Shown piece by piece: positions 35,666-41,480 of a stretch of DNA of 64,000 nucleotides (position 1 is its first letter; each line of letters opens with the position of its first letter). Source of the stretch: an uncultured Cellvibrionaceae bacterium. Its GTDB lineage: Bacteria > Pseudomonadota > Gammaproteobacteria > Pseudomonadales > Cellvibrionaceae. The notes under the pieces were generated by a model, which was given only the letters and a program-made list of their open reading frames with translations, made no database searches and was not told where the DNA came from. The DNA lies in NCBI GenBank assembly GCA_964342265.1, contig CAYFFE010000001.1, forward strand, positions 4,362-68,361, in the 5' to 3' direction. The translations under genes and the position numbers were made by a program.

Positions 35666-37558
35666 TCAGTCTGCCAACGCTTCCAGGGTTTCGGTGGTTT
35701 CCAGCCATTGTTCCTCACACTCTTCCAACCGATTGCGCAGCGTGCCCTGCTGTTTAACCAGACCCTGTAATTCATCCGCGCGACTGGCGTCGTTGTACAG
35801 TGCGGTATCGCCCAGTTGTTGTTCCAGTTCGGCCAAGCGCGATTGCAATTGATCAATTTCTTTTTCGAGTTTTTTTAACGCCTGAGTCAGCGGCTTTAAT
35901 TGCTGGCGCTTATTGGCAGCTTGCTGTCGGGCTTCTTTTTTATCGACTTTTACGCCGGAGTTTTTTTCCTGGGTGCTGGGGCGAGTATTGGATTTATTGT
36001 TTTGGCTGAGCCAATTTTGATAATCCTGCAGGCTGCCATCAAACGGCTCCACGCTGCCGGCGTGTACCAACAAAAATTCATCCACGGTATTTTTTAACAA
36101 ATGCCGATCGTGAGAAATCACCACAATGCCACCGCTAAAAGCCTGTAGCGCGAGAGTCAAGGCGTGGCGGACTTCCAAATCTAAATGGTTGGTGGGCTCA
36201 TCAAGCAACAACAAATTGGGTTTTTGCCAGGCGATTAAAGCCAGCGCTAGGCGTGCTTTTTCGCCGCCAGAAAAAAAGCGAATGGTTTCCAGGGCGCGGT
36301 CGCCAATAAAACCAAAACTGCCCAAAAAATTGCGAATGTCTTGTTCGCGGGCTTTGGGCGATAAACGTTGAATATGCAACGCACAAGAAGCATCTAAATC
36401 CAACGCTTCCATTTGATGCTGGTGATAATAGCCAATGCGCAAGTGTTCGCCGGCAACACGACTGCCGCTAACAGGCGTGAGTTCGCCGGTGAGTGCTTTG
36501 ATGAGCGTCGATTTACCCGCGCCGTTAGCGCCCAGCAAACCGATGCGGCTGTCCACCGATAGCGTTAAATTTACGTTGTTGAGCGTGGGCGATTGATCGT
36601 AGCCAATAGTGGCTTGGCTCAAACTTAACAGTGGTGTGGAAATTTTTTCGGCACAGGGAATGTTAAAACTGAATTGGGAATCCACATGGGCCGGGGCAAT
36701 GGTGGCCATGCGCTCCAATTCTTTGAGTCGACTCTGCGCTTGTTTGGCTTTGGTGGCTTTGGCTCGAAAGCGCCGCACAAAATCTTCAATCTCGGCGCGA
36801 CGCTGTTGCTGTTTCTCGAAGGCTTGTTGCTGCTGAGCCAAACGATCGGCTTTTTGGGTCTCAAAGCTGGAATAATTGCCGGTATAAAATTGCAATTGCT
36901 GTTGCTCAAAACTTACGACTTCGCCAATAACATTGTCGAGAAAATCCCGATCGTGGGAAATGATTAGCAGAGTACCTTTATAAGCTTGCAGCCAAGCTTC
37001 CAGCCACAAGGTGGTATCCAAATCCAAGTGGTTGGTGGGTTCGTCGAGCAGTAATAAATCCGATGGGCTCATTAAAGCTTGTGCAAGATTTAAACGAATT
37101 CGCCAGCCGCCGGAAAAATCTTTTACCGGGCGATTAAAGTCATCGTCGCTAAAACCGAGTCCGGATAACAATTGTGCAGCGCGCGCCGGGGCACTGTAGC
37201 CGTCGATTTCTTCGAGGCGAGCGTAGCAACGGCTTAATTGCTCACCATCGCTCTGGTGTTGTTCGATGTCTTGCTCTATTTCTCGCAGAACTTTATCGCC
37301 ATCAATTACAAAATCCAGTGCGGTGCGCGGGCTATCGGCGGTTTCCTGAGCCATGTGCGCAATACGCCAGTCGCCGGGTATGTGCATATCGCCGGCGTCG
37401 TGGCTGATTTTGCCGAGCAGTAATTGGAATAGCGTGGATTTACCGCTGCCGTTAGCGCCGATAATGCCCAGTTTATGGCCGGGATACACACGCAGACTGG
37501 CGTCTTCCAGGAGAACTTTGTGGCCGCGTTGAACGCGAATTTGGTTAAGATTAATCAT
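35666..37558 (-). CDS. yheS: ABC-F family ATPase
   Basis: Two ABC domains (GANGSGKS, GANGAGKS), FSGGWR, DEPTNHLD, C-terminal coiled coil; start MINL at 37558. Confidence 0.92.
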   Translation of the reverse strand: MINLNQIRVQRGHKVLLEDASLRVYPGHKLGIIGANGSGKSTLFQLLLGKISHDAGDMHIPGDWRIAHMAQETADSPRTALDFVIDGDKVLREIEQDIEQHQSDGEQLSRCYARLEEIDGYSAPARAAQLLSGLGFSDDDFNRPVKDFSGGWRIRLNLAQALMSPSDLLLLDEPTNHLDLDTTLWLEAWLQAYKGTLLIISHDRDFLDNVIGEVVSFEQQQLQFYTGNYSSFETQKADRLAQQQQAFEKQQQRRAEIEDFVRRFRAKATKAKQAQSRLKELERMATIAPAHVDSQFSFNIPCAEKISTPLLSLSQATIGYDQSPTLNNVNLTLSVDSRIGLLGANGAGKSTLIKALTGELTPVSGSRVAGEHLRIGYYHQHQMEALDLDASCALHIQRLSPKAREQDIRNFLGSFGFIGDRALETIRFFSGGEKARLALALIAWQKPNLLLLDEPTNHLDLEVRHALTLALQAFSGGIVVISHDRHLLKNTVDEFLLVHAGSVEPFDGSLQDYQNWLSQNNKSNTRPSTQEKNSGVKVDKKEARQQAANKRQQLKPLTQALKKLEKEIDQLQSRLAELEQQLGDTALYNDASRADELQGLVKQQGTLRNRLEECEEQWLETTETLEALAD

Positions 37559-37714
37559 TGCACCATTGTACCTGCCCGAGACTCGATTGCGCATCTGCTA
37601 TTGAAAAGTCACCGCAATAAAAATTAACCTGTACTTTGGCAGCCGCTAGACTTGAGTCTCAACACAGACTTTAAATTCAAGCCCCTAAACCGCACACAGG
37701 GAGGCAACCCCAAG

Positions 37715-38161
37715 GTGTCAGCCCATTTATTGGACAACCCCTTTTGGCAATTTGCCCTCCGTTGCTACAGTCGGCCCGGCAATGCGGCCTTTTGTTTAAA
37801 ACTGCAGGATGAATATCGGGTAAATGTAAATGTGCTGTTGTTCAGCGCTTGGCTTGCGCAGAGCGACCGTTCGTTGCCGCGCAGGGATTGGAATGCATTA
37901 ACGCAGCAACTGCAGCCGTGGCAGCAGCGAACCGAACAAATTCGAGTATTAAGACGCGCGCTAAAGCCGTTTAATCATCGCGCGGAGGGCAATAATTTGT
38001 ACAAAGCCGTTAAGCGATTGGAATTAATCAGTGAGCAATATCAGCAATATTTAATGTGGCGGGCTGCCGCTTATTCAAAGACTGGGGGGGATGCTTGGCA
38101 GTGTTTGATCGAGGATTACAACATTGGCCAATTTAAGCGTGAATTGTTAAAGCTTCAGTAA
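37715..38161 (+). CDS. TIGR02444 family protein
   Basis: FWQFAL..Y, CL.LQD...NVN.LL...W, LRR.LK, ELISE; divergent from yheS as in related taxa. Confidence 0.8.
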   Translation: MSAHLLDNPFWQFALRCYSRPGNAAFCLKLQDEYRVNVNVLLFSAWLAQSDRSLPRRDWNALTQQLQPWQQRTEQIRVLRRALKPFNHRAEGNNLYKAVKRLELISEQYQQYLMWRAAAYSKTGGDAWQCLIEDYNIGQFKRELLKLQ

Positions 38162-38284
38162 TAATGATGTGATAGCGCAAAAGGCGATGGGTAAGTCGGT
38201 ACTACGCCACTCAAACAATTAATTGGATTGATTCTTTGCAGTCCAGCTCTCGCAGACCGCTAATAATAAAAGCGTAGCCGATAA

Positions 38285-38320
38285 AACAAAAAGGCCACTG
38301 AATTCAGTGGCCTTTTTGTT
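38285..38320. terminator. Bidirectional intrinsic terminator
   Basis: AACAAAAAGGCCACTG-AATT-CAGTGGCCTTTTTGTT, a perfect palindrome between convergent genes. Confidence 0.85.
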
Positions 38321-38471
38321 TGCCGACACTGGCATTTAAACATCCCTGTGTTGCCTTTATTTCTGTTCAAAAGCTTGTTAACCCAAAACTCATTTTTGCT
38401 CACACCCGCTTTACTTAAAGCCCAATGGCCAACCGCGGGTATAAGCAAAATACCACGGTTTATTTCGAGAA

Positions 38472-39620
38472 CTAATCCTTCGGCGAATCGAACAGGCTTT
38501 TCACTATGGCAGAAGAGTGAGTGTCTTTTTCGGCATCGTCTTTGGAATCAGATTCGGATTCATCAGCTGAGGTGGTGTCGGTGGATGTTGCAGGCGTGTC
38601 CTCAGTGTTGTTTTCCGAAGTTTTATCTTCCGTTGTTGCACTGCTAAAGCCGCTGTTAAACGCCGCAACGTTGTTGGTCTCGGGCTTATCTTCGCTAGCC
38701 GGTGTCTCGGTAGTTTCGTTTGCCGATACATCCGTGCTGGCAGTTGGCGTAGCAGGAGTTGGTGTTGTGCTTGCAGGGCTGGCCGGTGTTGCCACTGCAG
38801 GCGTATCGTCGTTTGCCGTCGTTGTTAGGAGCGACGATTGTTCAGGAGCTTCCTCTTTTTCAACTTTTGGTTTACGACCGCGCTTTTTTGGCGCCGCTGG
38901 CGCTGGGTTGGCAGTGGCTTCGGCTTTGGGCTTGCGGCCGCGCTTTTTCGGCGCCGGAGCTGCTTCGCCAGTAGCAGCGGTCTCTGCTTTTGGTTTTCGG
39001 CCGCGCTTTTTCGGCGCTGGCTGGGTGCTTTCTGTTGCAGTGGTCGCGGCGGCCTTCGGCTTACGACCGCGTTTTTTCGGCGCCGCTGCTGCTTCAGTGG
39101 TTGCGGTTGCAGCTTTTGGCTTACGGCCTCGCTTTTTAGGGGCGGCCTCTTTTTCGGTTGTTTCCGATTTTGCAGCGGTGGCGCTAGCTGCTTTGGGTTT
39201 GCGTCCGCGTTTTTTCGGTGCGGCTTTTTTACCCAGTTTTGCGGCTTCTTTCGAAATCGCTTTGCTGATGTTATTGAATTCTTTAATTTCTTCTTTAATA
39301 GCTTTCGCTGTTTCTTTAGCAGCGGCAACCTCGGCTTTGGCTAATGCCTGAGCTTCTTTGGCCGTGGCCATTGCTTCTTTGGCCTTTTCGGCACGGGCTT
39401 TTTGTGCAGCCGTCTTTACATTTTTTACGGCGGTGGTGGCTTTGGATTTTGCCGTGGTGAGTTTCTTCGCGGCTGCAGCATAGGCTTTCTCGGCTTTTGC
39501 TACCGCCTTCTCGGCATCAGTGGCTTTCTTTTGTCGGGCTTTTTCTAAGTCTGCGGTAACTTTCGCGATGCTCTTTTCAAGCTCGGCAATCGATGCAACA
39601 GGTTTCTTTCGGGCGGCCAT
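38472..39620 (-). CDS. AlgP-like histone-like protein with six PKKRGRKPK repeats and an acidic tail
   Basis: ATG 39620 after AAGGA; MAARKKPV N-terminus and K/A coiled coil resemble AlgP; lies between TIGR02444 and an FKBP gene. Confidence 0.8.
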   Translation of the reverse strand: MAARKKPVASIAELEKSIAKVTADLEKARQKKATDAEKAVAKAEKAYAAAAKKLTTAKSKATTAVKNVKTAAQKARAEKAKEAMATAKEAQALAKAEVAAAKETAKAIKEEIKEFNNISKAISKEAAKLGKKAAPKKRGRKPKAASATAAKSETTEKEAAPKKRGRKPKAATATTEAAAAPKKRGRKPKAAATTATESTQPAPKKRGRKPKAETAATGEAAPAPKKRGRKPKAEATANPAPAAPKKRGRKPKVEKEEAPEQSSLLTTTANDDTPAVATPASPASTTPTPATPTASTDVSANETTETPASEDKPETNNVAAFNSGFSSATTEDKTSENNTEDTPATSTDTTSADESESDSKDDAEKDTHSSAIVKSLFDSPKD

Positions 39621-40682
39621 GGATACGTCCTTTAAGTCAGTGAAAAGAAATAAATTGCGTGGCAAAAATATAATAACGCTACTGGTAAAAAAAATGTACG
39701 TTTTATCGCCTGATTGGCAAAAAAAATGTGCATTAATTGGATTTGGGATCGCTTTGTGAGTTTCTTGCAATGCAATTACGAACAAAATTGGCCGCTGCTA
39801 AAGATTTGGGGTTCGTAATGCGTTTCGACTAACAGCGCAAAGCCGCAAAGTAATTTGGTTAAACCGTTTGTTCTTTAACAAATCAGCAATCGCTAGTTTG
39901 CTACTTTGCGAGCGTCGTGAATTGTAAATGCCGTGTTCAGTTCAAGTAATGCTAGGTGTGAATCGGTAATTATGTCGGACCCTTATTAAGTGCTGTGATA
40001 AATGCCGACTGAAATCAGTATTTGGGTAATCAATCCGACCGCTAACAGTCGATTGGGCGGTATTGCAAAATCACTAACTGCTCGTTCATCAAACTATCTA
40101 GCTGTGGCTAAATTACGATGCCGTTGTTATTGGCCAAACAATTTAAGGCTCGGCCAATGAGTAGATCGGCGAGTCGCTCTCTGCAATGTTGACAAATGGC
40201 GCAAAAGCTCAGTGTGTGAGTCGTCTATAAAGCACTCAAAGTGTGTTGTTGCGCGCAACTTATCCGTTTGCTGGGTGCCTGGGTTTGTAAGGCGGTGGCG
40301 ATCTTGGTATGTTCGAGCCCGCTCAGTGTGTTCAATTTGCCGTGAGCAGTGAACTCTTGCCTAACTGTCGGTCCAATATTTTTGCAACGCGCCACCGCTA
40401 CAATACTGGCGGCTCAAATTGCCGTTTATTATGGCGTTGCGGTTTGAGCGAAATGGACGTTGGTACCGCTAAAAGGCTTCGATGTGTAATCTAAATGCAT
40501 TACCATGCCGCAGGCACAGATAGGCGGCTCGCTGGGAATGCAGTGGTTTAACCTTATTCGGGTTTTATCGTTGGGGGAATCTCGGTAAAGCTCAACTCTG
40601 CTCTAAGTGCAGGCGGTTTGCATTACCTCAGTAAAAAGTTCGCGGTCACTCTGTTAAATCTATCAATAAATAGGAACAAGCA

Positions 40683-41480
40683 ATGAAATTTAAAGTAATT
40701 ATTGGAGCCGTGGCGAGCTCGGTACTGTTAGCAGCCTGTAATGGCGAGAAAAAACAGGAAGAACAAGCTCCACTACAACTAGACACAACCGAACAAAAGG
40801 TTAGCTACATTCAAGGCTACCGTTTGAGCCGTCAGTTGGAAGAGTTGGAATTCAGCTTGGACAGCAGTGCCATGCAAGCGGGTATTGAAGATCACTTGGC
40901 GGGTAAAGAGTCTCGCTTCAGCGATACCGAAACGCGCACTGTTATGACCGATTTCCAAAACTCTATGTTGGAAAAACAAAAAGAATTGCGCGCTAAGCAA
41001 GATAAAGAGCGCAAAGCCGCTGCCAAAGCCAATGCCGCAGAAGGCGAAGCTTTCATGACCGAAAACGCTGCTAAAGATGGCGTTGTAACCACCGACAGTG
41101 GTTTGCAGTACCGCGTAATTACCGAAGGTACTGGCGAGCAGCCGAAACCTACCGACAAAGTTACTGTTAATTACCGTGGTACGTTAATCGACGGCACTGA
41201 GTTCGACAGCTCTTACAGCCGTGGTCAACCCGCCACTTTTGGCGTAACTCAAGTTATTCCAGGTTGGACCGAAGCGCTGCAATTAATGAGCGAAGGTTCA
41301 AAATGGGAATTGTACATTCCTTCCGATTTGGCTTACGGCGAAACCGGTGCGCCTCCTTCAATCGAGCCAAACTCCACTTTGATTTTCGAAGTTGATTTGC
41401 TCAACATCGGCGAGCCGAAAAAAGTTGAAGCTGAAGCGGAAACCGAAACGGAAGAAGCTGAAGCCTCTGCAGAAGGTTAA
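40683..41480 (+). CDS. FKBP-type peptidyl-prolyl isomerase (FkpA/FklB family), lipoprotein
   Basis: Lipobox LAAC, SGLQY, YRGTLIDGTEFDSS, VIPGWTEAL, IPSDLAYG. Confidence 0.95.
   Translation: MKFKVIIGAVASSVLLAACNGEKKQEEQAPLQLDTTEQKVSYIQGYRLSRQLEELEFSLDSSAMQAGIEDHLAGKESRFSDTETRTVMTDFQNSMLEKQKELRAKQDKERKAAAKANAAEGEAFMTENAAKDGVVTTDSGLQYRVITEGTGEQPKPTDKVTVNYRGTLIDGTEFDSSYSRGQPATFGVTQVIPGWTEALQLMSEGSKWELYIPSDLAYGETGAPPSIEPNSTLIFEVDLLNIGEPKKVEAEAETETEEAEASAEG

Follow-up and report, generated by a model that had tools for sequence, protein, structure and literature searches.

What does a protein do that carries six AT-hook-like modules at the genomic position occupied in Pseudomonas by the gene for AlgP? 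The question is raised by a gene in a 64,000-nucleotide stretch of DNA (the window) from an uncultured Cellvibrionaceae bacterium (contig CAYFFE010000001.1, positions 4,362 to 68,361). The gene lies on the minus strand, begins with an ATG at 39620, ends with a stop codon at 38472-38474 and encodes a product of 382 amino acids. An earlier note, made from the letters alone, described this protein as an AlgP orthologue whose H1-like repeats had been replaced by AT-hook-like modules, and suggested that it might be an architect of AT-rich DNA, a xenogeneic silencer or an organizer of polyphosphate granules, with an acidic tail that would be autoregulatory. The comparisons described here favor a more general function. 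With a probability of roughly 0.6, the protein is a nucleoid or polyanion tether of the AlgP type, which would bind multivalently and with low specificity.

The polypeptide begins with a free basic peptide, MAARKKPVAS (39591-39620; this and all other elements of the gene are on the minus strand), which is conserved and unstructured in AlphaFold2 (AF2) models. Residues 11-129 (39234-39590) are predicted to form an antiparallel hairpin of two helices, spanning residues 11-66 and 71-129, with a predicted local distance difference test score (pLDDT) of 88 that reaches 98 when an alignment of 46 sequences is supplied. Everything downstream, about 250 residues from 130 to 382, is disordered in the prediction. 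This part includes the array of hook modules (38865-39221), a tail rich in P, T, A, S, E and D (residues 253-372, 38505-38864) and a C-terminal tip, SLFD (38487-38498), which is distinguished by its conservation and by a small rise in pLDDT. The tail contains two short motifs, SSLL (38826-38837) and NVAAF (38658-38672), that are shared with the related proteins of genomes G001, G002, G106 and G145. Net charge is +17 for residues 1-133, +29 for residues 134-256 and -20 (pI 4.05) for residues 257-382, or +26 for the whole protein.

The sequence APKKRGRKPK is repeated six times without change, at residues 134-143, 160-169, 180-189, 202-211, 223-232 and 243-252 (nucleotides 39192-39221, 39114-39143, 39054-39083, 38988-39017, 38925-38954 and 38865-38894). 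The linkers between these modules are 10-16 residues long, rich in A, T and E, and different from one another. The six 30-nucleotide cores differ pairwise at three to eight positions (mean 5.2), and all of these differences are synonymous. In simulations, the chance that five random changes in a hook core all remain silent is about 4e-4. Because the divergence is synonymous only, each hook has been kept individually by selection, and the copies are not recent duplicates. By this codon evidence, each of the six hooks is shown to be under purifying selection.

Much of this architecture had been recognized in the earlier note, which correctly listed the 382-residue reading frame with its six exact motifs, the variable linkers, the diverged synonymous codons and the acidic C-terminal tail. 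Its K/A-rich N-terminal coiled coil is indeed helical, and the form that AF2 predicts is the two-helix hairpin. The SLF tip, which after the N-terminus is the most conserved feature of the protein, had been missed.

Searches with the Pfam and NCBIfam libraries yield no match to the protein, even when the AT_hook and AlgP models are considered at E ≤ 1. The AlgP family is defined by the NCBIfam model NF038178 (AlgP_Nterm, Pfam PF27285), which has a curated cut-off of 100 bits and gives a true AlgP (L013) 216.7 bits. An AlgP protein for comparison was located through its TIGR02444 neighbor in a 6.5-Mb genome of the same order, and its close relatives bear the NCBI name 'AlgP family protein [Pseudomonas ...]'. 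The profile-profile comparison that had been proposed as a check on the N-terminus does reveal homology. When 17 N-termini of the window type are aligned to 20 from AlgP proteins with hhalign, the probability is 95.5% (E 1.6e-8), and 118 columns are collinear from Met-1. Reversed alignments give probabilities below 1%, and 30 column shuffles score 10.5 +/- 1.4 with a maximum of 13.8, as compared to 53.7 for the true pair. The peptide MAARKKPVAS aligns with MSAKQKPV of Pseudomonas AlgP. Comparison of the hairpin to the PDB with Foldseek is uninformative, returning only generic helical hairpins (Vipp1/PspA, chemoreceptors and colicin R-domains), none of them at E ≤ 0.001, and a protein atlas comparison provides only weak leads with scores of 0.80-0.87.

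Gene order agrees with the profile comparison. The locus FKBP(-)/AlgP(+)/DUF2390(-)/ABC-F(+) of a Pseudomonas-type genome (G101) corresponds to the same four genes in the window when these are read on the minus strand, and the ABC-F gene of the yheS type, the TIGR02444/DUF2390 gene and the FKBP gene are the neighbors that the earlier note had named. Taken together, these comparisons make the protein a distant homologue of Pseudomonas AlgP and, by its genomic position, the orthologue. Since NF038178 does not recognize it, it falls in a sister subfamily that lies outside the AlgP family by the curated definition, and the term 'AlgP orthologue' holds with this restriction. It also has no KPAA-type H1-like repeat domain, and the six RGRKPK hooks and the acidic tail stand in its place.

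How widespread is this subfamily, and is the hook array typical of it? No homologues were retrieved at E ≤ 0.001 when residues 1-135 were used in a word-indexed search, a failure for which composition filtering is the probable cause, and orthologues were obtained instead by six-frame searches of genomes. Of the 201 genomes examined from the window's bacterial family, 181 contain a match to the N-terminal profile, and most of these encode two paralogues. Only five columns are invariant among 46 aligned primary copies: M1, A2, L25, L376 and F377. Residues A3, K5 and K6 of the N-terminal peptide and S375 of the tip are kept in at least 90% of these sequences. The tip has the consensus [S/G]-[L/I]-F-[D/G], and 46 of 47 primary copies carry [S/G/R][L/I]F near their ends. 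The sole primary member that lacks it (L049, G014:C71) has odd internal repeats, PSAGDSKR and QPVVKSLQ, and may be frameshifted or rearranged. SLF tips also occur in TIGR02444-adjacent relatives from at least five other families of the order and are not found in Pseudomonas-type AlgPs. Between the hairpin and the tip, sequences are disordered and variable throughout the subfamily.

Most of these variable regions contain no hooks. In a census of about 47 primary copies, 20 of which were picked by length and thus bias the sample toward unusual tails, 40 have lysine repeats only (AKKA, TAKKA, KPAA or AAKPK), five have full hook arrays and two have a few degenerate hooks. A second species of the window's genus (G001) has six canonical RGRP(A/P)K hooks, and in a third (G002) nine AAKPK repeats stand in place of hooks. 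Two orthologues from the sister genus (L064 and L080) have arrays of six or seven canonical APKKRGRPKA hooks that close with a single APKKRGRKPKA. Hook arrays are also present in L085, from another genus of the family, and beside TIGR02444 in two other families of the order, where L010 has about nine PKKRGRPAKA units and L040 has about 11 KRG[P/R]GRPKKA units and an acidic tail. Given this scatter, hook arrays must have arisen or been acquired more than once.

An IQ-TREE phylogeny of the N-terminal domain unites the proteins of the window, G002, G001, G106 and G145 in one clade (support 100/99), within which the hook-less G002 protein is sister to that of the window (96/80). The simplest history would have hooks in the ancestor of these five proteins, with RGR-K-P as the terminal unit. 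This unit would then have taken over all positions in the window's lineage, after which the copies diverged synonymously, and lysine repeats would have replaced the hooks in G002. Mapping repeat types across orthologues, as had been suggested, therefore supports the proposed replacement of H1-like repeats by hooks only in part. Lysine repeats are indeed the usual form, but within the local clade hooks look ancestral and the change has partly gone the other way. Across the subfamily, the polycationic array is, from its distribution, an exchangeable cassette that consists mostly of lysine, alanine and proline repeats and, in a few lineages, of AT-hooks.

Tail charge tends to vary with the array. 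Members of the hook-bearing clade have a net charge of -16 to -28 in their last 100 residues and of +4 to +26 overall. The tail of the G002 protein is neutral (+3) and its overall charge is +55, as in most members with lysine repeats (median tail +1.5). The co-variation of hooks and acidic tails is suggestive of a functional coupling like that in HMGA proteins. Hook loci tend to have a lower GC content (0.43-0.54) than lysine-repeat loci (0.43-0.61), a comparison that was discarded as evidence because only two or three independent origins are involved.

Are the modules of the window protein really AT-hooks? The AT-hook (PF02178) has an R-G-R-P core, with G-R-P as its defining tripeptide, and all six copies instead read R-G-R-K-P, with one lysine inserted, within the basic flanks PKK...K, a departure from the canonical form that the earlier note had pointed out and that leaves Pfam AT_hook without a match. 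A full-length word-indexed search mostly retrieves unrelated proteins that share the array alone, and a locus search with the window protein recovers only hook arrays, in Ruminococcus, Bacteroides, Lautropia and metagenome-assembled genomes of Clostridia. Motif statistics were taken from an exhaustive phmmer search of 1.8 billion representative proteins, which produced 158 matches, almost all of them to the array only. Among the best 150 of these 158, 75 proteins have at least three RGRKP motifs, 43 have at least three RGRP motifs and 22 mix both; 67 of the proteins together contain 163 copies of the nonamer PKKRGRKPK. From this survey, RGRKP is a widespread and portable variant that is used interchangeably with canonical hooks.

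The module APKKRGRKPKA is fused elsewhere to a Ppx/GppA-family phosphatase, a Rho termination factor and an ATP-grasp-like enzyme (P0289, P0286 and P0273). In the phosphatase it forms a C-terminal array of four RGRKP units and one RGRP, in Rho it lies within an N-terminal insertion, and the ATP-grasp-like enzyme has six RGRKP and three RGRP units. Thus P0289 and P0273 combine both forms of hook in the same array.

The sole experimentally tested RGRKP hook found in the literature is AT-hook 2 of MeCP2, which contains the identical octapeptide PKKRGRKP. This peptide binds DNA, but about 25-fold more protein is needed than with an HMG-I consensus hook (PMC5028900). Poly(dA-dT) and poly(dG-dC) compete for it almost equally, which its authors blame on the displaced proline, and they describe the sequence as having 'barely detectable AT-hook character' (PMC5028900). 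MeCP2 is a vertebrate methyl-DNA-binding protein with this hook as a single copy, unlike the six in tandem of the window protein.

The free exchange of hooks for lysine repeats and the low AT preference of the tested RGRKP sequence together suggest that the conserved need is for multivalent binding of a polyanion and not for the reading of sequence. The proposed tether would be built on a plan common to the subfamily: a basic N-terminal peptide, a helical hairpin, a disordered polycationic array, a spacer tail and the invariant S-L-F tip. The hook array would bind a long polyanion at many points with little sequence selectivity. Chromosomal DNA is its most likely target; polyphosphate or RNA are possible. 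The hairpin and the SLF tip would contact other partners or further copies of the same protein, such that it could serve as a nucleoid tether or spacer, a role that AlgP has for polyphosphate granules. The net charge, about +55 in relatives with lysine repeats, is brought down to +26 by the acidic tail. This tail probably moderates or gates binding, in that it would compete with the polyanion for access to the hooks in the manner of the acidic tails of HMG proteins. The SLF tip probably marks a partner, and this tip, SSLL, NVAAF and the basic N-terminal peptide look like candidate short docking motifs.

Several observations weigh against this tether model. BLASTP comparison of the protein to true AlgP finds nothing, in line with the failure of the curated model, and similarity between K/A-rich helices can easily be spurious, though the hhalign controls speak otherwise. 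With a net charge of +26 and an acidic tail of 126 residues, as compared to +55 for AlgP, it is uncertain whether the role at polyphosphate granules can be transferred. Few independent events underlie the coupling of hooks to acidic tails, and there are exceptions: the hooks of L085 go together with a tail of +7, and the lysine repeats of L089 with one of -21. The MeCP2 result was obtained with one hook in a glutathione S-transferase fusion, and six tandem hooks might behave differently. Finally, neither the SLF tip nor the acidic tail is docked on the hairpin in the full-length AF2 model, which is silent on intermolecular contacts.

A narrower reading would keep the protein closest to AlgP, as a strict organizer of polyphosphate granules whose array would bind DNA as well as granules and distribute the latter at intervals along the nucleoid. 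In favor of this are the orthologous position, the N-terminal homology to AlgP and the requirement for the basic C-terminal domain of AlgP, which itself binds DNA, in the even spacing of granules (PMC9239181). All five genomes tested, the window's own among them, carry the polyphosphate kinase gene ppk1, and the fusion of the same hook module to a Ppx/GppA-family phosphatase fits as well. However, binding of polyphosphate by electrostatic attraction alone should suffer from the much reduced net charge and the long acidic tail, and the SLF tip hints at a set of partners different from that of Pseudomonas AlgP, so that we consider this restriction unlikely, if still worth bearing in mind. The specificity could also lie in DNA. 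An AT-selective nucleoid architect or xenogeneic silencer would insert its RGR cores into narrow AT-rich minor grooves in the way of HMGA, H-NS or Lsr2, oligomerize through the hairpin, and coat or bridge AT-rich (foreign) DNA. The RGR cores have basic flanks, orthologues carry canonical RGRP hooks, and the proximal region upstream of the gene itself is AT-rich (34% GC). In addition, the H-NS (PF00816) and MvaT (PF22055) domains were not found in genomes G000 (that of the window), G001, G002 and G106, although a Pseudomonas-type control genome contains the MvaT domain four times. The clade may thus lack both known proteobacterial xenogeneic silencers, and a silencer niche could be open. Yet these domains are equally missing from the hook-less relative, and their absence does not track hooks. 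The identical MeCP2 peptide has barely any AT preference (PMC5028900), and Pfam AT_hook does not match. A sister species has exchanged its hooks for AAKPK and most relatives use lysine repeats, such that AT recognition cannot be the conserved function. Nor does the window protein match a folded DNA-binding domain of the H-NS, MvaT or Lsr2 type (PF00816, PF22055); its RGR motifs lie in a disordered region. The silencer named first in the earlier note is weakened by these findings, and we judge it quite improbable.

RNA is a third conceivable target, in which case the basic array would bind mRNAs or ribosomes, possibly together with the neighboring ABC-F translation ATPase. There is precedent in the KPAA-rich disordered region of PhaF, which binds target mRNAs and activates their translation, and AlgP is itself a candidate RNA-binding protein, having been co-captured with CspD (PMC12818456). 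The synteny with ABC-F is conserved across the order, but it takes in the FKBP and DUF2390 genes equally, and the convergent and divergent orientations of these genes exclude a shared operon. The evidence is circumstantial, and an RNA-binding regulator is very unlikely. More radically, the frame might not be a gene at all, merely a low-complexity product of biased composition. Long open reading frames do overlap on both strands here, and the protein matches nothing in Pfam or NCBIfam. Against this stand orthologues with conserved ends, found in 181 of 201 genomes, hook cores that diverge only synonymously, a confident hairpin model, RNA contigs that are limited to the coding sequence, and the presence of a Shine-Dalgarno sequence and a terminator. 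The chance of a spurious frame is negligible, and we regard that explanation as already refuted.

The favored tether has partial counterparts among known proteins. Pseudomonas aeruginosa AlgP (AlgR3) occupies the same genomic slot and shares the homologous α-helical N-terminal domain of about 125 residues. It likewise has a basic start peptide (M.A.KKPV) and, after the N-terminal domain, a long disordered basic repeat domain. It differs in having about 30 KPAA repeats where the window protein has six RGRKPK hooks and an N-terminus that is beyond the reach of the curated model and of BLASTP. The 126-residue acidic tail and the invariant SLF tip set the window protein further apart, as AlgP has no SLF tip, and their net charges are +55 for AlgP (PMC9239181) and +26. 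No literature was found that links AlgP to AT-hooks.

The clearest precedent for an exchangeable array is CarD of Myxococcus xanthus, a single family in which AT-hooks with an acidic region alternate with a lysine-rich H1-like domain (PMC4374960). According to that source, which cites Garcia-Heras et al. 2009 PNAS, the HMGA-like and H1-like domains of the orthologues are functionally equivalent. Unlike the window protein, which has an AlgP-type hairpin and no Pfam match, CarD has an N-terminal CarD_CdnL_TRCF domain that binds RNA polymerase. In addition, its hooks are canonical RGRP, its acidic segment precedes the hooks instead of following them, and it is restricted to myxobacteria. With at least three hooks (six variants, +29) and an acidic segment (-20) in a disordered region, the window protein has the HMGA/CarD type of architecture, a matter of resemblance and not of homology. 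Eukaryotic HMGA1/2 are also disordered, with several hooks on short linkers and a C-terminal acidic tail. They have three P-RGR-P hooks and no folded domain, in contrast to six RGR-K-P hooks on a helical hairpin, and again there is no homology.

PhaF, a protein of polyhydroxyalkanoate (PHA) granules in Pseudomonas, combines a helical N-terminal part with a disordered, AlgP-like basic tail of KPAA repeats. It links a storage granule to the nucleoid, binds RNA or does both. Its N-terminus is that of a phasin, such that its likeness to the window protein is architectural only. The window's genome does encode a second paralogue with the hairpin (L046; G000 contig C16:32348-33067; L100:6349-7068), which is 239 residues long. 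It has AKKAA repeats that end in two canonical KKRRGRPPKAKA hooks and lacks both the acidic tail and the SLF tip. A gene for an intracellular polyhydroxybutyrate depolymerase (PF06850) lies 3.2 kb upstream of the paralogue's gene on the same strand, and the two are 4-5 kb apart in both sister species. This paralogue may be a PHA-granule tether like PhaF or PhaM.

The separate observations can be joined in a more ambitious scheme. In it, the subfamily would consist of chromatin or granule tethers whose cassette flips between lysine repeats and hooks even within a genus, with spacer acidity co-evolving. The form with hooks and an acidic tail would be a self-gated bacterial analogue of HMGA, and the SLF tip, with SLL and VAAF, would dock a hub partner. 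Taken as a whole, this scheme is speculative and probably goes too far, and its candidates for the hub are equally conjectural: the beta sliding clamp, the DUF2390 neighbor or a ParA-type ATPase contacted through the basic N-terminal peptide. The motif by which several proteins bind the beta clamp does end in SLF. If the scheme were true, docking to a hub would couple the organization of granules or the nucleoid to replication or active positioning.

The coding sequence (38472-39620, 382 codons plus stop) is supported by its open reading frame, by alignment of the start to orthologues and by RNA contigs. A longer TTG-started frame of 437 codons was rejected as the gene because all orthologues begin with MAARKK or MAAKKK at the equivalent methionine. 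A Shine-Dalgarno sequence, AAGGA (39628-39632), can be read 7 nucleotides before the ATG. Farther upstream is a candidate σ70-like promoter, TTGCCA-16-TACATT (39693-39720), which is a consensus match within the conserved AT-rich proximal region; the last 100 or so nucleotides before the gene (34% GC) are 76% identical to G002. This is the only conserved portion of the 1,062-bp spacer (39621-40682) that separates the gene from the divergent FKBP gene and that holds no convincing open reading frame. At about 750 bp and about 580 bp, the spacers of G001 and G002 are shorter, and that of the Pseudomonas-type locus has 82 bp.

All three conserved neighbors are recognizable. The FKBP-type peptidyl-prolyl isomerase, an FklB/FkpA-like lipoprotein (40683-41480, plus strand), and the ABC-F ATPase of the YheS type (35666-37594, minus strand) were assigned by library matches and synteny. 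The convergent TIGR02444/DUF2390 gene (37652-38161, plus strand) adjoins AlgP or AlgP-like genes across the order. No literature on the function of DUF2390 was found.

About 150 nucleotides past the stop codon of the AlgP-like gene is a perfect palindrome (38285-38321) that folds into an A-tract/17-bp stem/U-tract hairpin (z -5.5), and one RNA contig ends within it, at 38318. By its structure and placement, this hairpin is a bidirectional intrinsic terminator that serves the convergent AlgP-like and TIGR02444 genes. Rfam matches to psRNA14, CsrC and the Phe leader at 38259-38362 all fall below the gathering score and were rejected, as the palindromic terminator accounts for them. The palindrome also explains a break in the assembly graph: metagenome DNA contigs are interrupted exactly at 38285-38321, and a 38-nucleotide piece appears at double depth, which a palindrome would be expected to cause. 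In comparison to the window, the DNA run has 42 differences to the left of the palindrome and none to the right, which suggests that strain variants are joined there in the assembled contig.

RNA evidence comes from contigs, not reads, of two metatranscriptomic runs of one marine sample from a single study. Two contigs (38567-39622 and 38721-39626) cover the coding sequence without any differences, and another extends from its end to 38318. The FKBP gene is covered as well. In both metatranscriptomes, coverage is zero over a 600-nucleotide stretch of the upstream spacer and over the TIGR02444 gene, and the DNA run is even throughout. Silent flanks under even DNA coverage make carry-over of DNA unlikely, and the AlgP-like gene is transcribed in situ. 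Both coding-sequence contigs stop 2-6 nucleotides upstream of the ATG (39622-39626), downstream of the Shine-Dalgarno sequence. These ends are at most suggestive of where the transcript begins, and a leaderless transcript is not concluded from them.

AlgP is one of few bacterial proteins known to organize polyphosphate granules on the nucleoid. Its investigators have called for more phylogenetic analysis of the variability of the C-terminal domain (PMC9239181). The present finding overturns nothing, and it exposes an invariant C-terminal motif that is missing from Pseudomonas AlgP. Exchange of array cassettes would give the CarD precedent a second case, in a bacterial family that is unrelated to CarD and far more widespread. 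The subfamily also amounts to a natural experiment on whether DNA, polyphosphate or RNA is the target of an AlgP-type tail. Close species display RGRKP, RGRP or AAKPK on a common scaffold, some with an acidic tail and some lacking it, and swaps among these forms could separate the contributions of charge, valency and minor-groove reading.

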